Under the pieces are notes generated by a model that ran no database searches, was not told where the DNA came from, and saw only the letters and a list, made by a program, of their open reading frames with translations. DNA of 64,000 nt from NCBI GenBank assembly GCA_977018835.1, contig OZ361260.1, positions 868,001-932,000 of the forward strand, read 5' to 3'. This document shows, piece after piece, positions 10,430 through 59,904 of this stretch. The DNA is from Minutocellus sp. GHC0000111. Lineage: Eukaryota. The stretch's first letter is position 1. Each line of letters begins with the position of its first letter. The position numbers were made by a program, and so were the translations under genes.

Positions 10430-10629
10430 NNNNNNNNNNNNNNNNNNNNNNNNNNNNNNNNNNNNNNNNNNNNNNNNNNNNNNNNNNNNNNNNNNNNNNN
10501 NNNNNNNNNNNNNNNNNNNNNNNNNNNNNNNNNNNNNNNNNNNNNNNNNNNNNNNNNNNNNNNNNNNNNNNNNNNNNNNNNNNNNNNNNNNNNNNNNNNN
10601 NNNNNNNNNNNNNNNNNNNNNNNNNNNNN
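10430..10629. other. Assembly gap (200 N)
   Basis: Run of N. Confidence 1.
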
Positions 10630-11718: not shown

Positions 11719-11728
11719 CTAATATACA

Positions 11729-12172
11729 TGTTAGTCCCAAAATGCGCACTGTCCCAGTTCGCGAACTGGGATCCCAGTTTGCGAACTAGGATTTATTTAT
11801 CCCAGTTTGGAAACTGGGATCATAGGCACAATCTCAGTTTGCAAACTGGGATCAATCGAGAAATAATGAATATTTAGCATGGATGATATCGCCTTTGCTT
11901 CTCCTCGCTTCATTTTTTCATAGTGAAGCAACACAGCCCAAACCTGGTCCAGACGACATTAGTGCCGGAGCTGATACTCAATAAATTGGCATTAGCTGAT
12001 ACTAAATACATATAGTGAATAAATAATAATATCTAGCTAGCTGCTTCTGGCAAATATAAGTCATGAACTGTACATGCATCTGTGCTATGCCGGCATCATG
12101 TTGCTACTGTACCAGTACATGTAGCTTGCAAATTCAAGATATGATGCACAGTGCAACTTGTATTGTAGATAG
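11729..12172 (-). mobile_element. Truncated MITE copy 1 (one TIR), inverted relative to copy 2
   Basis: Starts TGTTAGTCCCAAAATGCGCACTGTCCCAGTT. It is a near-exact reverse complement of ~17426-17859 and breaks off at 12172, directly against LKR/SDH coding sequence. Confidence 0.9.
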
Positions 12173-16921: not shown

Positions 16922-17130
16922 CGAGGTGGAATTCTTGTAGGAATTCCTACATGTAGCTTTTGTAATTAACACATTGTAGACCCAAGGATGATTCAATGCA
17001 ATCCACAAGCACAGTGCATGTATTATAGTACCGGTGCCGGTACCAGTACATGAAGGAACTTACCGGCGCCGCAGATCAAAGAAGAAAAGCACCAGGTATT
17101 TATTGCCTGCTGTTGTCCATTTTATATATA

Positions 17131-17859
17131 TGTTAGTCCCAAAATGCGCACTGTCCCAGTTCGCTAACTGGGATCCCAGTTTGCGAACTGAGATTCATTT
17201 ATCCCAGTTTGCGCACTGGGCCCCAGTTCCCAAACTAGGATCTCAGTTTGCGCACTGATACTACCAGAATGGAAACTGAGATAAACACGCCAATCCGAAT
17301 TTGGGAACCAGACGAGTTCGCGAACTGGAACAAAAATGAATACCAGTTTGGAAACTGGCATTCTCGGCAAGTGTCAGAATGGTAACTGCCGGTGTTGGCT
17401 CATGCACAATGATTATGTACTGGTAGATCTATCTACAATACAAGTTGCACTGTGCATCATATCTTGAATTTGCAAGCTACATGTACTGGTACAGTAGCAA
17501 CATGATGCCGGCATAGCACAGATGCATGTACAGTTCATGACTTATATTTGCCAGAAGCAGCTAGCTAGATATTATTATTTATTCACTATATGTATTTAGT
17601 ATCAGCTAATGCCAATTTATTGAGTATCAGCTCCGGCACTAATGTCGTCTGGACGTCTGGACCAGGTTTGGGCTGTGTTGCTTCACTATGAAAAAATGAA
17701 GCGAGGAGAAGCAAAGGCGATATCATCCATGCTAAATATTCATTATTTCTCGATTGATCCCAGTTTGCAAACTGAGATTGTGCCTATGATCCCAGTTTCC
17801 AAACTGGGATAAATAAATCCTAGTTTGCAACTGGGACAGTGCGCATTTTGGGACTAACG
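17131..17859 (+). mobile_element. Full-length MITE copy 2 (non-autonomous TIR element, ~730 bp)
   Basis: ~30-bp TIRs TGTTAGTCCCAAAATGCGCACTGTCCCAGTT ... AACTGGGACAGTGCGCATTTTGGGACTAAC(G); subterminal palindrome arrays; TA at both flanks; no coding capacity. Confidence 0.93.
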
Positions 17860-18193
17860 TACATATTGTAAAGTACAAAATGCCTAAAGATATACGAGCG
17901 AGCCGGCCATGCATTTCTGCCTCACAATGGTTAATACATGATGGTCGAGGGAACATGCGCCGTCCATCGCGCTCCTCTTTTGACCAAGTGATGACTAAAA
18001 CTGGAGAGGTGCTCTCCTCGACCCATTCCACCAAGAAGAGGAAGAAATCGCATTGGGCGGAGACTGTATGCCTGTGCTGAGCGAGGAGGCCTACAATTTT
18101 CACTGTTGGCCGCAACTGTTCCTTCTTGCTACCGTTCGATCATTCAAAGATAAACCTGCTCCTGCCTCCATCCTGACTGACTGATCCTTCAAT

Positions 18194-51005: not shown

Positions 51006-51079
51006 TTCCAAAAAAAAGAGAAAACAACTTGAATTCATACAGACGACGCCTGTATATTATTATATATAAAATGTATATA

Positions 51080-51823
51080 TGTTAGTCCCAAAATGCGCAC
51101 TGTCCCAGTTCGCGAACTGGGATCTCAGTTTGCGCACTGGGATTTATTTATCCCAGTTCGGAAACTGGGATCCCAGGCACAATCTCAGTTCGCAAACTGA
51201 GATCGATTGACAAATAATGAACACTTAGCAAGGATGATATCGCCTTTGCTTCTTTTCGCTTCATTTTTTCATTCGGCCAAAGAATGGAAAGCATCGTCAT
51301 TTGCTCTGATCCCGGCGGCGGCGGTGACAACGGGGTAATAGCAATGTTGATGTTGCTGACATTTGTATTGGCCACCGCCGCTTTTGTTATTGTTGCTTTT
51401 CGTTGATAATTTACATTTATTTTATGATGCACAGTGCAACTTGTATTGTAGATAGATCTACCAGTGCATGTGCATGCATGCAATTTAGTTGATAAACGAT
51501 TACGTAGATTCTACTTATACATGTACCTAGGTACAAAATAATCATTCTGCATGAGCCAACACCGGCAGCTACCATTCTGGTACTTGCCGAGAATGCCAGT
51601 TTCCAAACTGGTATTTATTATTGTTCCAGTTCGCAAACTCGTCTGGTTCCTAAATTCGGATTATTTTATTTATCTCAGTTTCCATTCTGGTAGTATCAGT
51701 GCGCAAACTGAGATCCTAGTTTGGGAACTGGGGCCCAGTGCGCAAACTGGGATAAATGAATCTCAGTTCGCAAACTGAGATCCCAGTTCGCGAATTGGGA
51801 CAGTGCGCATTTTGGGACTAACA
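51080..51823 (-). mobile_element. Full-length MITE copy 3, inverted relative to copy 2, with a different interior
   Basis: TGTTAGTCCCAAAATGCGCACTGTCCC ... GGGACAGTGCGCATTTTGGGACTAACA; flanks GTATATA| and |TATATAC. Confidence 0.93.
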
Positions 51824-52184
51824 TATATACACCGGAAGCCTGGCTGTTAGATCTACATGTACATATTCAGCAAGTCCACATCATCCACAAAATATAGATA
51901 GCACTCGATATTTATAAATCCTATAATATATTGATAAAACCTCAACTCTTACACCACACTATGCTACATATGATACGGGCCATTGATTAGGCAGGCGCTG
52001 ATCTTCATGTGCAAGTCTCACTTTGAGACTGGCCGATGCTCTGAGGGAGGTGGCTTCTCGGCTCGTCACTCCAACAAAGGACATGGTCATTATGAGCAAT
52101 TCCGAGGTTATGAGAAGTGGCCCAGAATTCACTACGAGTAGAACAGGCGAATCATTGATGTTTTGACTTTGTGACCTATTGTCT

Positions 52185-53006
52185 TTATGCCTTATGCGAC
52201 TTCAAGATAGTTGGAAATCTATAATAGAATTTAGTTACACACCGTGATTCTCTGCGTTCTTGGTTCTTGGTTGCCAAGGCAACAATAGTAAATCGCAGTT
52301 CTCCCGGATCTCTCTGCATAAATTTATCAACGACGCCGCAGGCATCTCTGAGAAATGATGCCTCCTCTGTAGGTCCATGATGAATCGGCGCTTCCTTTCG
52401 TCCATCTAGCTCGTAAAGTCCTCCGTCGACGTTGACCAGTGCGACGAAATGGGTATTGACAGCATCCTCCAGGCTACCACGGCCAGTCTGATTGGCATCA
52501 TCAGAAGTCGCGGCATCGTGCATGGTCTCAATTTCTTGATCTGATTCCAGAATCGAAGCCTTCTCGGTTGGGCTAAGGGTGTGAGGACACTTCGAGTAGA
52601 AGCGGTCCATCCAAGAGCCCTGTTGGATGAGGCCGTCCTTCCCACCTCCCGGTACAGCCGTGGAGAGGTTGCCAAGTGCATGGAGGATTCCGATGGTGCC
52701 ACAAGCGTTGCCAATCCGCTGCTTCATGTACCAAACCTTATCGGACACCTGCTGCTTGGGTGTCACATCCGTGTTCTCGGCCGCCCTGTGCGCCTCTTGC
52801 GGCGGAGAGATGGGGTAGAGCATAATAACAGCCGCCACCGGTTGCGGCACCATTTCCAGCGCCCAATCCTCAGTAGAGAAGACATCGACGAACTCCAACT
52901 GGTTGGTGTCGAGACCGAGCTTGCTGATGTATGAATTGAGCAGAGGGGGATTCGATTCGAGGGGGAACCACCGCCCAGCGTCCACTCGTTCCTCCTTGTC
53001 GGTCAT
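52185..53006 (-). CDS. Ubiquitin C-terminal hydrolase, family C12 (UCH-L3-like)
   Basis: WFPLESNP, MKQRIGNACGTIGILH, HFVALV, LYELDGRK. Confidence 0.93.
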   Translation of the reverse strand: MTDKEERVDAGRWFPLESNPPLLNSYISKLGLDTNQLEFVDVFSTEDWALEMVPQPVAAVIMLYPISPPQEAHRAAENTDVTPKQQVSDKVWYMKQRIGNACGTIGILHALGNLSTAVPGGGKDGLIQQGSWMDRFYSKCPHTLSPTEKASILESDQEIETMHDAATSDDANQTGRGSLEDAVNTHFVALVNVDGGLYELDGRKEAPIHHGPTEEASFLRDACGVVDKFMQRDPGELRFTIVALATKNQERRESRCVTKFYYRFPTILKSHKA

Positions 53007-53111
53007 GGTCGTGCTGTGCGGAGATGATATCGATATGAGGGAATTGTGGGTACCGCACGGTGGGGATGAGCTGGCGACGGTGGTTAGCAGCAGGCACTAA
53101 AACTGCATTCC

Positions 53112-53277
53112 TGTAGTGCCCAGTTTTTCTGCTGACCACCACCTTCGCCTCCTCTCGTCTCAACTGACCAAGCAAGCCACAACCATCTGCGATTGCTGCC
53201 GTTGCAATTGCTAAGTCAGCTTACAGTACCGGCTCCCAGAGCCTGTCTCTCTCTCTCTCAGTAGTTCGTTAGTTTTA
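53112..53277 (+). repeat. Left terminal inverted repeat (166 bp)
   Basis: TGTAGTGCCCAG...GTTAGTTTTA is the reverse complement of 59511-59670 apart from a 4-bp duplication, one extra TC unit and one substitution. Confidence 0.97.
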
Positions 53278-53304
53278 AATTCCCTCAAACCCGTCTAAGA
53301 AGTT

Positions 53305-55441
53305 TCATTTGCCGGCGGCATCACGAGAAAGAGAATCAGCCTCCGGATTGCGCTTCCCCTGGAACCACTGTGAGTGCAGCATGGTGTTGGTCTCGATGAG
53401 CATGTCGGCTAGTTTCCGCGCCGTGGCCAGCTTGACCGCTACGTCAGCATCCTTCTCGCCGTGAGACACGAAGTTCGACTTCCTGAGCCATCCCTCGGCC
53501 GTGGTGCTGTCGGTCCCCGACAGCACGCAGGAGAGGGGGTTGGCAGGTAGGTTGCCCTCGATGTGGTCGATCCATGGGCCGATGACGGCGGCGAGGAATT
53601 CCAGGTAATTGAGGGTGAACCGGCCCCATAGCTCCTCGGGGAGGGCAAATCTCCACGCTCTGCCGGATGAGGACCATCCGCCGATGCCGTGCTCGCAGGA
53701 GGCGTCACTCATGCACTCGTGGGTGGGGCAACGGCACGTGAGGAGGTTCATGCTCATGCCATCGGCGGCCCTTCGGAGGAAGCGGAGCCATAGGTTGAGG
53801 TCTTCTGCATCCTCAGAGTCGAACCGTTGGCGGCCGTGGCGGCGGGCCTTCCAGAGCAGATCCCGAAGGCGGCTGAGGAAGTGTCGTGCGGCTGGAACGA
53901 TGCATCCGACGTGGTTTAGCCTTCCGACCAAGGTGTCCAGCTCTGATCTGGTGGCGCCGCGGGCTCTGAGGAGCCGAAGTGTGTCATCGCGCCAGGCCAG
54001 GTGCTTGCTCCAAGGGAGCCTCAGCAGGAGCCGCCGGGTGTCAGCATCCCACCCCAAGAGACACAGTGCTTCGGAAGGCAGGCGTCCCCTCGGCGAGCAG
54101 CTTCTTGATGGAGGCAAGGTCATCTCTGGGCAGTGGCTCGCTGTCGGATGCCGGTCGGCCAAGCGCGTGGATGGCGAGGAGGGTGGCAGCGGATGTCCGA
54201 TCCTTGTTGTCGCCCAGGTCAGGGGCTGCGGCGATGGGGTCATCGATGCACGGCTCGACGATGCCATCCTTGTTGTCGGGAAGGGTTGCGATCATGTCCA
54301 GGGCCGGCGCGAACGGTGCATCGTCGCCCTCCACCTTGGGGCGACCCAAGTGCTTCTGCTGGGGGCCATGGAGCTCTGATGGGTCCCAGTCCAAGCATTG
54401 CAGGAGGGCCCTGGCCAGGTCGGCCGCCGATTCGGACACATTGCACCATTCGCTCGGGCAAGGGCAGCCGCCGAAAGTCAGCCGGAGGGACATGAGGGCA
54501 ATGCCATCCAGGGTGGTGATCGTTTTGACGGCCGTGCTGGGAGCCAAGTGGGCCCGGCGACACGCAGCCTTGAAATCGACCTTCTGCAGGAGGATGGGAG
54601 CACGGGGATGCTTGTGACGGGCGTCTGCGATGTAGTGGATCACTCGCCGGAGGGCATGGCCGAACACCACTGGCTGGTGGTCCTCCATGCGTGCTCTGTT
54701 GTTGACGGACCGTGCGGCACCGATCTCGAAGGATTGGTCGTGAGTCAGGCGGTCCTTGGGCATGATCTCGCCAGCCTCGCTGATCGTGTTCTGTGCTGCC
54801 AAACCCATCGGAGCCACCTCCGCTCCAGGAATGAGGGGCGCGACCTTTGCTGGCAGAGGGAGGGCGAAACTGCGGGTCACGTCGTCGAGAACTTGGTCCT
54901 TGAGCACCTCCGGCCTGTCCCTGGCCGATTTGTGGTTGCCTCGGCCGATGCTCTTTGTCACGCTGTCCAGTCTGCTTTCGTCGCTCACCGGATCGAGGGC
55001 CCAGTCGGATCCACTGTCGAGAATGGAGCGGAAGCGGGACCACAGCGGGTGCCGGCCAAGAATCGGCTCCAGAAGACTCAGGTCTCTGAACTCCGATCCC
55101 GGTTGGAGTGGCGACCCGCCCTGCGCCTCGAGTGCCCTGCTCAGAGAACGATCGCATTTCTTGAGGACCGACCAATTGTGAGCGGCGGCCTCCGTCAAGA
55201 GCTCAAATCTGAACTCCGTGGGCTTCGGTGTGGCCGACGGGGAGACTCGACTGCTCGTCGGACGTGCTGCACCAAGGTGGAAACATCGAAGATGGGCTCT
55301 AGTTCCCACGTGGAATTGCATGAGGCGAGAAAAAGGTGAGATGTGTGCATGCTGCACGTTCACGAGCATGCGGGTCTGTCCGACCGTGGTGGGCCCATTG
55401 TGGGCGCTGGGCTGCCCCGTTTGTTGCAGGTGTTTCTTCAC
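53305..55441 (-). pseudogene. Reverse transcriptase-RNase H of DIRS type, inactivated
   Basis: KDRLTHDQSF, KVDFKAACRR, LRLTFGG, CIDD (for YIDD), LLGW, LVGRLNH, SDAS, NYLEFLA, TDSTTA, NPEADSLSR. Frameshift from a 4-bp duplication at 54076-54083. Confidence 0.88.
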
Positions 55442-55954
55442 CTGTTGGTCTCACTTGCCATTTTGGCGTGTCGGTTCTGCTTCCTTGCTGTGCGTAGGGG
55501 AACCAGGGGGAGACTGTGCTTCGGGTTGGGGCTGCTTGCCTAGGAGATCCTTCTCTCGCTGGCCTAGCCGGTCGAAGAGGTTGTCGGTGGCTTCCGCACC
55601 GCCAGCGTCAGTGGTGCTGGAGCCAGAGCCTGAGATGCTGTTGTCGGCGCAGGCATCACCGCTGGTGTTGGGGGGACCAGGACCCGACCGAAGGTCACTG
55701 CTAACGCCTCGGCCTTCTGCTCCGGCATTAGGGGCACCGGAGAGCCTGGATTGGTTGCTGATGTCGTTGCGACCGCACACGCCGGATTTTGGGGTGCCGG
55801 ACAACCTTGGGCGGCTGGAGCCACCGGGGCGGATCGACGCCGACGTGTCTGGCTGCACTCGACGGCGCTTGGAGGGACGAGCTCGGCCGGCTGGCCGAGA
55901 TGTTTCTCCAGCATCCTCCGAGGGTGGGCCACGCCTCCGTGCCCACCCGATCCG

Positions 55955-57922
55955 TCATTCCTCCGCCTCCTCGCACTTCCGATCGCATTTCTCGACGCAC
56001 TGCTCGACGGGTCCTCTCTCCGACGCCTTAAGAGGCTTCTTGACATGCGACTTCTTGAGCTCACACGAGGATCCGGCGCCGCAGACACCTATCAGGATGA
56101 ATGGAGGGCAGAATTTACAGCCATTAATTTCAGGTCTGTCCTCATGGGGCTCGGATTTCTTGCCATGCCGTTTTGCAAAGTTGCCGGGGTTGATGTCGAA
56201 CGTGACGAAGTGCTCGCACTGCTGGTGGGCTCTGCCGCTGGCGCCGCCCGTCTTTTGCTTCTTTTTCGGACTGGTTCTTGGCTCTGATTTGTCGGAGTCG
56301 GAATCCGAGGAAGGGGTGGGAGCGTCGGCCGATTGGACGAGCTTGATGTGGCTGGGGTAGACGAAAGGACTCTGAGTCTTCATCATCTTTTTGGACTCGT
56401 CGGCCATTGAGAAGCAAGAGAGGTCGTTGCCGGCGTCGTCGGGGGAACGGAGACAAGCTTTCCAGAATGCATGGATGGAGGCGTCGACATTGTGGAACAT
56501 CGCCAGCCAGAACTTCTCGCCATGGCTCTCGGCGATGTCGCGGTGCTGGTCCTCGTGTGTCTTCATGTGACTGAGGACCCTGGCGACGTAGCGAGCGGGC
56601 TCGGAGTCCTCTCCGGCAAGGAAGGAAATGCCAGCGCCGAAGGCCGAGATGTGACGTTTGGCACCGTCGTGCTCGGTTGGGGACCGGCAGCTCTGCTTCA
56701 GAAGAGCCTTCACCTGAGTCGAGGCATGTCCTTTCTTTTGAGAGGCGGCGAGGCAAAGGGGCGCATTGCTGCTGCTGGAGTTTGCCGGGCTAAAGGCGAA
56801 GACAGAGAAGCCATCGCAGATTTTCTTGTCGCTCTTCCCGAAGCCAAAGAGGCGGACGTAAGTGGTGAGGCCCTGGAGAGATGTCCTGACTCCGGTCTTG
56901 CCCTTTACATGCAGCTCGAGGCCGACGGCTGCTTGCGTGAGGTTTGACTCTTCCAGCAGTGCTTTCAATCCTTCGGGAAGATTCGAGTCGATCGCTGCTA
57001 CATCATCGTCACACTCGGTCGAGACCCGGCAGAAAGCGGCACAGGCCTTGAGGATGGCGCCATTCATCGAGTGCTTCTTGTCGACCTTGTCAGTGCAGGC
57101 CATGACTGCGCCGGTGAGGGAGGATGCTTCGGACGCGGCCCTAGTCATGGCGTTGGCCGCGGTAGCAACTGCAGAGTCGGTCGGGGCGCCACCGGCTGGT
57201 GGTCCGTCGCCACTGGCGCCAGTGATGCACCGAGCGTGCATCTCACGGGCGCATGTCTTGAGAGCCGGGTCCGTCGTTGGGTGCAAGCTGACGGCCGGGA
57301 TGTCACCTTGGTCGGACGTGGCGACGAACCACAGCCACTTGACGACGTGTTGAACAGCCTCATTGGAGCGAAGACCTGCTGCGCCATGACCCTCGTCGTC
57401 ACCGCTGTCTGATGCGTCGTCGCTGCCGGCGTCCTCATCCAGCCGACGTTTGATGGCGGACAGGATGGCCCAAGGCGATGCCTCGTGCTCTTCCAGAACA
57501 TTCTGCAGAATCGAAGGTGGCAGCAGCACAAGGGACTTAAACTTCGTGGAGGCACTCCGGTGGCGGGTGTTGGAGCCTTCCTGGGTGAGACCGGTTAGGG
57601 CGGCTTCTGACGGTGCCCCCAGCATGGCTTCCACCGATGGGGCTAGGACCTCCTTGTGCCGCAAGAGGCTAGGTTGGGCCAACGACATTGCCGGGGCTAC
57701 ATCGTCGATCCCGAGGAGCCCACCCAACCTGAGGTCGGGCTGCATGGTGGTGCCTCCCTGAGCCACGGCATGGTGAATCACCATGACTTTCCCTTCTGGA
57801 TGGTGGGCCAGCATGGACAAGCCCTCGGCGTCGCGGATTTGCTGCTGGATCGCTCGGGCATGGCTCTGGACCATGGCGGCCGTGGGGTCGGTTTCACAGA
57901 CGTTGTCAGGCAAGGTGATCAA
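55955..57922 (-). CDS. Gag-like ORF of the retroelement
   Basis: 655-aa ORF upstream of RT with a C-terminal Cys/His knuckle (FCPPFILIGVCGAGSSCELKKSH); only 3 Tyr. Confidence 0.6.
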   Translation of the reverse strand: MITLPDNVCETDPTAAMVQSHARAIQQQIRDAEGLSMLAHHPEGKVMVIHHAVAQGGTTMQPDLRLGGLLGIDDVAPAMSLAQPSLLRHKEVLAPSVEAMLGAPSEAALTGLTQEGSNTRHRSASTKFKSLVLLPPSILQNVLEEHEASPWAILSAIKRRLDEDAGSDDASDSGDDEGHGAAGLRSNEAVQHVVKWLWFVATSDQGDIPAVSLHPTTDPALKTCAREMHARCITGASGDGPPAGGAPTDSAVATAANAMTRAASEASSLTGAVMACTDKVDKKHSMNGAILKACAAFCRVSTECDDDVAAIDSNLPEGLKALLEESNLTQAAVGLELHVKGKTGVRTSLQGLTTYVRLFGFGKSDKKICDGFSVFAFSPANSSSSNAPLCLAASQKKGHASTQVKALLKQSCRSPTEHDGAKRHISAFGAGISFLAGEDSEPARYVARVLSHMKTHEDQHRDIAESHGEKFWLAMFHNVDASIHAFWKACLRSPDDAGNDLSCFSMADESKKMMKTQSPFVYPSHIKLVQSADAPTPSSDSDSDKSEPRTSPKKKQKTGGASGRAHQQCEHFVTFDINPGNFAKRHGKKSEPHEDRPEINGCKFCPPFILIGVCGAGSSCELKKSHVKKPLKASERGPVEQCVEKCDRKCEEAEE

Positions 57923-57929
57923 TGCTCGA

Positions 57930-59474
57930 TCACCTTGCCTGTCGCCTTCGGCGTCGGTCCTCTCGGCGCTGGATGTGGTTCAGATCGGCCGTGAGGGTGA
58001 GGATGCGGTCGGCGATGTCGGGCTCTCCAAAGGCGGATAGAAGGATGTTGAATGCCTGACGCGGTGGCTCTGACACCAAAACATCGGCGGTGACATCTCG
58101 CAGGCGGATAGGTGCCTCGAGATCGTCGGGGCGCCGGTGAATTGATGCTCTTGGCCAGACGCGGTAGTGGGTGCCCTCCCAGCGATTTGGATCGGCCGTG
58201 TCGTCTAGCCACCTCGGACAGACTCGATGGTAGGTGCCTACCCAGCGGTGTGAGGGGGACGCCGTTAGGTCTGCCAGCCTTCCCCAACATTCGTGCGGGT
58301 TGACCTCCACTCGGTGTCCAAGAGGATTGCTGTCAGGCCGAGTGTGTCGGAGTCGAGCGCTGGTGAGGCTCTCGAATCCACTGTCCCAGTTGATAATAGC
58401 TTCAGTGAGTTGGTCCGGTCGTAGGCACTGCCGTCTCTGGAACGGGTGCGGCGAATCCAGCGGGAACTGGGTGATCAGGGCGAAAGGGCCGATGAGATCT
58501 CCCCTCGCTCCAATGCCACACTGACGCCAGCCCGCTCGGTTCGGTCGTGTGCGTCACGTGGGTAGAAGAGTGGCCTTACCTCCCACTCGAAATAAGTGAG
58601 CGGCAGCGTTGGTGGAAGCTCGCTCCCCCGTGAACCTGTGCAAGTGCACGCTCTAGAGGTCTGCCCTCTCTGGCCGCGATGCGCCGTCTTTCTTTTCGGC
58701 CTGGTAGTGGAGGATGCACTGCGTGAGCCGGCAGAGCTGGGGCCAGATGCAATGGTGTTGCCGCGCTGCTGCTACCGATGCCTCCGGACACCTTCGCCCC
58801 CGACACTGTTGAACCACGACGCCTCCGTCTGCCCGTGGCAGTCGGCACAGTGCACTGCTCAGGTCCAACTCAGTTGCCGTCTCGTGTGCCCGGCGGATCT
58901 CAGGCTCGGCAAGGCGCGTGGCTATCAGCCAGATGTTGACGAGGTGCGTGGGCCAGTCCGGTGACACCAAGAAGGCTTGTTGCTCGAGGCACTCGGCGAC
59001 CAGACCGTGCGCTACTGGAGTAAGGTGTGAAACGGCTGCTGCTGGGGATGGCTGGTACCCCGTGGCTCTCGATGGGAGGTAGCCTGTGGCGCGCTCGACG
59101 AGATCGGTGAGGTGCTCGGTAACGTCGATTCGGCCCTCGGCAAAACTTTTCCACCAATCCAGTGCGTCTGTGGTCAGTCTCTCGGACAACGCCCTGGCTG
59201 TGAAGAAACTTCTGCGCCCGGGCCGAATCTGACGTCTGAGTCTGTCCCAGCCTCGTGGAAGGTCAGGAGAGTCTCCTCGGACGATGAGGTCTCTTGCCAC
59301 TCCGAACAACACGTGATCCAGTTCCGGTCGATCTGGTTCGGCCATGCACTGTTCTGCCGTCGTAGAGACTGGTGTCGGATCTACGTGCACTATCAACGGA
59401 GCTGAGCCGTGGCCGTTTGACTCCGGAGTCGACTGCGGTCTCTGGACTAACAGCAGTGGTGGTGTGTCGGCCAA
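57930..59474 (-). pseudogene. Interrupted unknown first ORF of the element
   Basis: Co-oriented ORF pieces 58653-59474 and 57930-~58550 inside the TIRs; no motif recognised. Confidence 0.35.
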
Positions 59475-59510
59475 TAATTACGAACTCGTAGAGTAGCACC
59501 AACCTAATGC

Positions 59511-59670
59511 TAAAACTAACTAACTACTGAGAGAGAGAGACAGGCTCTGGGAGCCGGTACTGTAAGCTGACTTAGCAATTGCAACGGCAGCAATCGCAGA
59601 TGGTTGTGGCTTGGTCAGTTGAGACGAGAGGAGGCGAAGGTGGTGGTCAGCAGAAAAACTGGGCACTACA
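59511..59670 (-). repeat. Right terminal inverted repeat (160 bp)
   Basis: TAAAACTAAC...CTGGGCACTACA. Confidence 0.97.
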
Positions 59671-59904
59671 CATTTACCGCCAATGCCAGCTCCAGTTCAC
59701 GTAGTTAAATTGCATTTCATGTTCTACTAAGTTGCATAGAGTTGGGAGAATCAGCGGAGGGAGGCACTGTGTTCGATGTATCATCGTGAGGGGCGCGGCG
59801 GGCGGCGGGGGGCACTCGAGATTATTGCTGGTCCCCGCCAAGAGGAAATCCCGAAATCGATCCCAGACACCACCATGCTCCATGTGATGAAGGAGAGGCA
59901 GGGA

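Follow-up and report, generated by a model that had tools for sequence, protein, structure and literature searches.

Context-dependent loss of TpA dinucleotides in a DIRS-like retrotransposon family of a Minutocellus diatom

Copies of a retrotransposon family in the diatom Minutocellus sp. GHC0000111 have lost nearly every TpA dinucleotide that is flanked by a 5' purine and a 3' pyrimidine, through A-to-G transitions falling on either strand, and comparison of the family's proteins indicates that each ancestral TA became TG or CA separately in each sister copy. That a targeted mutational process is at work here we hold with very high confidence. As its agent we favor, with rather more assurance than doubt and with the enzyme class counted in that judgment, a DNA adenine deaminase of the host, most likely an enzyme of TadA/ADAT type, that edits TA in the element copies.

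The TpA desert and its sequence context

The starting point was one element copy in a 64,000-nucleotide stretch of genomic DNA (contig OZ361260.1, positions 868,001 to 932,000), referred to below as the window. The following features are needed for the counts.

41078..42364, minus strand: RPN9, host gene, GC-matched control and taxon marker (TA observed/expected ratio, O/E, 0.49; 91% identity to Minutocellus polymorphus, Cymatosiraceae)
53941..55260, no strand: core TpA desert (1 TA against 42.5 expected)
54248..54250, minus strand: catalytic-motif codon, TGC (Cys); relatives Y58/F21 of 79, sisters H22/C7 with Y absent
54560..54562, minus strand: KAAxRR codon, TGT (Cys); relatives Y67/F13 of 80, sisters C25/H3
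54632..54634, minus strand: Tyr codon with the sole surviving TA of the core desert (CTAC context; sisters Y17/C9/H2)

An earlier note on this DNA, made from the letters alone, had counted a single TA in the 1,320 nt of the core desert, and our recount gave the same number (one TA, at 54633, O/E 0.02). Host DNA retains the dinucleotide: over 531 windows of host DNA, each 1,320 nt long, the median TA O/E was 0.57 and the minimum 0.37, and RPN9 (1,287 nt, GC 0.66), to which the note had credited at least 15 TAs, contains 18. At the RPN9 rate, the Poisson probability of finding one TA or none in 53941-55260 is 2e-8, a value that applies to a stretch picked post hoc. The two longest TA-free runs of the window (716 and 667 nt) both overlap this stretch, and the third longest is 395 nt. 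The protein products are correspondingly poor in Tyr, with one residue in the 469 aa of the reverse transcriptase (RT) ORF and three in the 674 aa of the gag-like ORF, each read from stop to stop; these are the counts that the note had reported. It had also proposed that Tyr was replaced by Cys or His in three motifs, and the codons bear this out, being TGC in CIDD, TGT in KAACRR, and CAC (at 53376) in LHSQWF. Among the best 80 of 389 distant relatives, Tyr or Phe occupies these positions in 79 of 79 aligned xIDD motifs, 80 of 80 KAAxRR motifs, and 59 of 60 LxSQWF motifs (Y56, F3, and L1 in the last).

The erasure is bound to sequence context and spans the whole element interior. Writing RTAY for purine-TA-pyrimidine, YTAR for pyrimidine-TA-purine, and mixed for the remaining flanks, we found one RTAY against 55 expected in 53305-59440, and in this one 64-kb window the RTAY O/E was 0.81 for host DNA and 0.018 for the element interior. 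In the same interval YTAR stood at host level (O/E 0.33 vs 0.27 in the host), so that the window DNA agrees with the rule derived below from the copies. Mixed-context TAs are kept in the element's 5' quarter (57980-59477) and are nearly absent in the RT region; the intensity of erasure is maximal over RT and declines toward the element ends. The TA at 54633 survives in CTAC, a slower context, and TAG is the best-surviving TA context in the element. The note's claim of a saturating mutator is thus borne out at RTAY sites only.

Architecture and identity of the element

The element copy, its parts, and the basis of each assignment are as follows.

53044..59786, minus strand: the full repeated unit, a putative retrotransposon copy of the DIRS order (tyrosine-recombinase type), assigned from the ORF order of relatives and delimited by loose contig ends at 53044 and 59786/7 and an empty-site join 53043-59787 (run X1)
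53112..53277, no strand: left inverted repeat (aligned with the right arm over 166 columns at 95.8%; TA O/E 0.71)
53305..54076, minus strand: RT end and RNase H-like region (matched by tblastn, E 1e-72, in the corresponding region of relatives)
54041..55450, minus strand: RT ORF, of which the homologous part starts at about 55242 and runs to 54076 (model pLDDT 91; fold matches)
55955..57979, minus strand: gag-like ORF, named by position, with all RTAY gone (0 vs 20 expected; 57-member cluster at 97%)
57980..59440, minus strand: 5' region with unassigned ORFs at 58653-59477 and 57930-58553 (RTAY 1 vs 13.4 expected; mixed 21 vs 26.8)
59511..59670, no strand: right inverted repeat, pairing with the left arm (TA O/E 0.82)

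The predicted structure of the RT ORF has a retroviral-type fold, the top matches of the fold search being MMLV RT (E 1.9e-4) and HIV-1 RT (E 5.3e-4), and it is from this search that the RT assignment comes. A PDB sequence search with the RT alignment gave no match. Neither did a Pfam search of the element ORFs, and the 5' region ORFs found no counterpart in 80 relatives (best 80 of 389). The region at 53305-54076 is labeled RNase H-like by its motifs; a 4-nt duplication near 54076 separates it from the RT ORF, and no recombinase ORF follows. In relatives the gene order is gag, RT/RNase H, and an ORF with recombinase motifs; six of eight such third ORFs matched PF00589, weakly and below the curated cut-off, and the R...HSxR...GRW...Y/F motifs are present. 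A recombinase match sought across the window was not found. In the place that the recombinase occupies in relatives, after the RNase H-like region, the window copy lacks about 850 nt or more near 53310, and a contig carries about 850 extra letters before 53316. About 100 nt are also missing at the gag start (57907-57914).

Inverted repeats, a gag-like ORF, an RT of retroviral-type fold, and an RNase H-like region are shared with the DIRS order, and the gene set of relatives closes with the recombinase ORF, which the frameshifted window copy lacks. The unique segments outside both inverted repeats set the element apart from that order. The (Y/F)xDD feature, intact in all aligned relatives mentioned above, is mutated in the window copy. 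With no recombinase in the window copy, the element is filed as a DIRS-order retrotransposon partly on the evidence of its relatives.

Several further observations concern the structure of the copies. The repeated unit overruns both inverted repeats, at 53044-53111 and at 59671-59786, and contigs link the right end to left-end letters and, in four runs, internal letters to 59671 onward; these joins suggest a circular intermediate or tandem copies and hint at an internal complementary region. In run X1 the depth of the element's main contigs exceeds that of the flanks about 30-fold, a ratio that fits tens of copies without being a copy number. Relative to the read majority, the short insertions of the window copy are tandem duplications of 2-4 nt (at 53169, 53538, 53542, 53697, 54076, 55242, 56217-56219, and 58501), a few of them at or beside a former TA; they possibly arose from nicking at edited bases. 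Frameshifts also occur in many sister proteins.

Independent changes in sister copies

Besides P0005, at 84% identity, the RT search returned nine proteins that are 93-96% identical; a second look-up of the clusters brought no further members. For the comparisons we used sisters covering 42 of the 58 members of the RT cluster and 15 of the 57 members of the gag cluster, with P0005 (RT, 84%) and P0110 (gag, 87%) as near outgroups for polarity. The sister proteins sit on many contigs, mostly over 0.4 Mb, and are assumed to come from the window's genome or a close strain; since they were compared as proteins, silent changes are invisible. A frameshifted sister, P0109, enters no sister count, and P0098, identical to P0003, was left out of the rare-variant spectrum only.

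The direction of change is read from the outgroups, of which P0110 still has 16 Tyr in 399 aa. Tyr columns of the two outgroups correspond in the sisters to C98, H86, Y71, and Q7 (the Q all in one indel column), and eleven control residues in the same test were changed in 0-3.4% of cells. Columns of the Tyr type hold only H158, C151, and Y74, with no transversion among 309 Tyr replacements. The catalytic motif is hit throughout, none of the 29 listed sisters covering it having kept Tyr or Phe (H22/C7). The DNA level agrees: of the 101 differences that separate run X1 from the window, 99 are transitions, and adjacent CA/TG doubles make up 16 of the 40 listed difference rows; differences of these kinds recur in four runs, which come from four studies.

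The changes were independent between copies. At 17 sites of the RT/RNase H region, 25 long rows displayed 23 distinct patterns, and both repeated patterns were pairs from contigs of the same length. Linkage reached p<0.05 in 4 of 136 site pairs and p<0.01 in none. Strand events at 35 codon sites were 209 on the coding and 208 on the template strand, per-copy strand bias was absent (p=0.86), and so were same-strand runs in the distance classes of 0-40, 40-120, 120-400, and 400-1,500 nt (p 0.15-0.82). The earlier note had read TA>TG and TA>CA as one A>G change on either strand, to be sought as an excess in copy-to-copy differences; the restriction to transitions, the equal strands, and the independence of copies all accord with that reading.

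More distant relatives, recovered by a metagenome scan at 38-48% identity (best 80 of 389 kept), show neither the loss nor the Cys-type motif. Their RT regions have TA O/E values of 0.29-0.97 (median 0.635), the GC-rich ones among them (0.60-0.64) lie at 0.29-0.63, and no second TpA-erased lineage with an O/E under 0.29 was found in these best 80 of 389. The note had reasoned that intact, active copies with CIDD and without TpA would speak against a mutator, as would a TpA O/E equal to that of GC-matched host coding sequence; the relatives keep Y/F at the motif and contain TA, and GC-matched host genes retain theirs. Relatives were also sought in viral contigs, where none was found. One distant relative (L010:2756-3904) shows strong CpG depletion (CpG O/E 0.24) with a normal TpA O/E of 0.66; CpG decay thus proceeds in its host without the TpA process.

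The context ladder

At the 35 codon sites, which are those where both products are visible and which were chosen as polymorphic, 318 of 322 RTAY but only 99 of 185 mixed contexts had changed; the counts in the window DNA are free of this choice. Within the mixed sites, the strand with a pyrimidine 3' of the A takes 78 of the 99 changes. The rare-variant spectrum, in which only unambiguous changes were counted, extends the rule to other bases 5' of the A, with 24 variants per 1,000 for AAY (18/738), 11 for CAY (8/756), and 2.2 for GAY (8/3630). When a purine follows the A, the changes nearly vanish (AAR, CAR, and GAR together 2/5275; AAR 0/1459 and GAR 1/3221), as they do at AAA (0/438) and GAA (0/1099). 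Transversions occur at 0.2-0.9 per 1,000. The ladder by the base 5' of the A is therefore T >> A > C > G with a pyrimidine needed 3', and the fastest site is R-T-A-Y.

The hazard at RTAY is at least 1.6 per strand, against 0.2-1.2 per 1,000 for the background classes. From these values we infer a rate at least about 1,000-fold above background, as a ratio and not as a per-generation rate. CpG transitions are also raised, 3.4-fold (22/5382 vs 15/12475 elsewhere, or 4.1 vs 1.2 per 1,000), so that the process may have some link to methylation. Comparison of the two rates within the family places TpA loss hundreds of times ahead of CpG decay.

Sequences that are spared

Three copies of a MITE family and one host gene adjoining the insertion served as comparisons within the window.

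11721..12172, no strand: MITE copy 1, partial, control (TA O/E 0.96; RTAY 15 vs 10.2 expected)
17124..17867, no strand: MITE copy 2, control (TA O/E 0.87; RTAY 21 vs 15.5 expected)
51072..51831, no strand: MITE copy 3, control (TA O/E 0.78; RTAY 15 vs 15.8 expected)
52185..53006, minus strand: ubiquitin C-terminal hydrolase (UCH), host gene adjoining the insertion (PF01088 E 5e-58), with a candidate leaked change at 52762

The MITEs, which have long inverted ends and TA-rich flanks, are 91-95% identical over 199-460 aligned nt and together hold 51 RTAY against 41.5 expected. Their differences fall at TA in 11 of 37 cases, a mild bias with no consistent direction. Because all three copies are spared, repetition alone is insufficient to attract the process, at least for short repeats; there may be a length threshold. 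The earlier note had also stated that the terminal inverted repeats of the element and the neighboring genes keep their TAs. For host genes this stands, and for the repeats it stands by O/E, with one RTAY site per arm, which makes their sparing thinly supported. Of 958 nt of flank compared with the empty-site contigs of run X1, 957 are the same. The single difference, G vs A at 52762 in a GT-A-T context, which is of the favored RTAY type, lies 282 nt from the element and exchanges Thr and Ile in UCH; it could be leakage of the mutator into the host gene, and seven further RTAY sites in the same flanks are unchanged. Elsewhere in the window, 10430-10629 is an assembly gap of 200 N within an NAD(P)-binding gene region.

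Candidate mechanisms

A deaminase acting on DNA would convert A to inosine in the element, and the inosine would be read as G. Its substrate would be inserted, presumably silenced copies. That the loss is strand-random, unlinked, and transition-only suggests that edits were set one by one in chromosomal DNA in the course of many divisions. A silencing mark, not repetition, would guide the targeting, the edits would together inactivate the whole family, and the process may in this way serve as genome defence.

Engineered enzymes offer a partial match for the context. In the portions of the source papers available, the TadA-derived editor ABE7.10 is described as best at TAC and failing at AAA (PMC12595020), the latter paralleling the absence of changes at AAA in the family, and ABE8e off-targets are given as 94% A>G/T>C at TA (PMC13225742). 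Both enzymes are engineered, however, and the match extends to these two motifs. BjADAT2 of amphioxus, the sole natural ADAT for which activity on DNA was assayed, favors GAA and acts on the C of TCG as well, as far as the accessible text states (PMC10354150), which counts against the deaminase fit given the 0/1099 at GAA. The purine preference at -2 is likewise left unexplained by deamination.

A second explanation, which we consider unlikely, is a mutagenic mark on TpA in silenced DNA, either 5hmU/5fU made by TET/JBP or a methylated adenine that is deaminated, decaying to C:G much as 5mCpG decays to TpG/CpA. A chronic mark of this kind would yield the site-by-site, strand-random, transition-only decay that we observe. 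The base 5hmU still pairs with A, which tells against its being mutagenic in this way, and a four-step ladder 5' of the A is better suited to an enzyme pocket around the A. According to the available text of PMC11572971, in which diatoms do not appear, the transposons of dinoflagellates carry 5hmU, and the T of TA and TC is the one preferentially replaced by it; in the diatom family the T of TC, read as GA on the complementary strand, belongs to the coldest class (GAR 1/3221, GAY 8/3630).

It appears quite improbable that a polymerase like Pol eta, filling gaps with errors while silenced DNA is repaired, produced the A>G changes at WA. Pol eta is error-prone at template TW, hence WA hotspots, in the text of PMC6423074 that is available, and the ranking of TA and then AA at the top of our ladder suits it. 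But AAR gave 0/1459 and the CAY rate is nearly half that of AAY, none of the 309 Tyr replacements is a transversion, and the same-strand runs that patch synthesis should leave were not seen. Moreover, a quarter of its in vitro errors fall at C/G by the same text, while non-CpG G/C changes here are at background.

A-to-I editing might also have acted on the element RNA, with reverse transcription fixing the edits ahead of insertion. The element does copy itself via RNA, and at least four-fifths of the element is found in contigs from RNA libraries, which does not prove transcription. We regard it as very improbable all the same: the strands are equal within each copy (209:208), and ADAR2, whose hot spot is UAG in the available part of PMC10661471, favors the very context that survives best here as TAG. 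A 4-nt duplication at 53542, in which one unit has TA where its partner has CA, is an anecdote fitting mutation after insertion, and the changes described for Bigelowiella natans (see below) arise, in the portion of that report available, in resident DNA.

Inherited TA-poor composition, ordinary CpG decay, or assembly error can be set aside almost entirely, for even though the family is GC-rich, CG too decays to TG/CA, and 7 of the 40 listed read differences are of the CpG type and private to the window copy, the C/H columns are Tyr and never Arg in the outgroups and some sisters, GC-rich relatives (best 80 of 389) still have O/E values of 0.29-0.63, and the same kinds of differences recur in four runs from four studies. 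As the source of the CA/TG splits in particular, CpG decay was ruled out by the retention of CGN Arg codons in 531/534 and 243/248 cells.

Returning to the deaminase, a wider proposal can be framed, which we offer tentatively and would hold somewhat short of an even bet: diatoms may naturally possess a DNA adenine deaminase that is guided by chromatin and has a TadA-like pocket (best site R-T-A-Y; T>>A>C>G before the A; pyrimidine after). It would edit silenced retroelements in place until a whole young family loses the catalytic tyrosine of its RT, and it would be the same system as in Bigelowiella, a defence common to stramenopiles and rhizarians from which natural adenine base editors could readily be drawn.

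Relation to known systems and implications

RIP makes TpA from CpA and tends to give same-strand runs. The diatom process resembles RIP of ascomycetes in being transition-only, dinucleotide-specific, active on both strands, and directed at mobile elements; it differs in its opposite direction, TpA being lost, in its lack of same-strand runs, and in sparing repeated MITEs of 91-95% identity. The earlier note had spoken of a reverse RIP. The direction is indeed the opposite, whereas the trigger is not RIP-like, since the MITEs are spared and, by the available text of Mettrop et al. (bioRxiv 10.64898/2026.01.13.699255), a single-copy region is affected in B. natans.

The note had also left it open whether the process was undescribed; it has in fact been described. 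The accessible part of the same preprint reports TpA>TpG/CpA mutation in mutation-accumulation (MA) lines of B. natans, with a rate near 6e-7 per site and generation, some 1,000-fold over background, in two viral regions of which one is single-copy. The changes arise de novo in resident nuclear DNA and in some lines only, TpA-poor coding sequences are enriched in RT and DDE domains, and an adenine deaminase (ADAT) is proposed, as yet unproven (10.64898/2026.01.13.699255). Both cases share TpA transitions on both strands, confinement to foreign or mobile DNA, and the insufficiency of repetition alone as a trigger. They differ in that B. natans is a rhizarian alga in which the changes were caught de novo in MA lines, while ours is a diatom in which they are read from copies; further, its viral regions are far from saturation (Rho 0.45), while the diatom retrotransposon family is saturated. 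The main text of the preprint treats TpA only, without flanking context or diatoms, and the diatom family adds the RTAY preference and a weak AAY/CAY/GAY tail. A literature search for TpA>TpG/CpA mutation in diatoms or under the name of reverse RIP, with most subscription papers outside its coverage, found none. The diatom family is therefore a new member of a recently described kind, whose published case is a single unrelated alga, and is not a new kind.

The diatom family contributes the demonstration that each copy was changed on its own, a ladder that covers all contexts, spared controls in the window, and evidence that the process is almost independent of CpG decay. Each copy of a young, many-copy family is an independent replicate, the host is close to the culturable Minutocellus, and the site ladder provides a yardstick for assaying candidate enzymes; if a natural enzyme is responsible, it would be of relevance to base editing. 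For the biology of the family, the process can strip a catalytic residue from every copy seen, outruns CpG decay, and passes over short repeats, and it would bias the GC content, the Tyr content, and the age estimates of diatom transposons.
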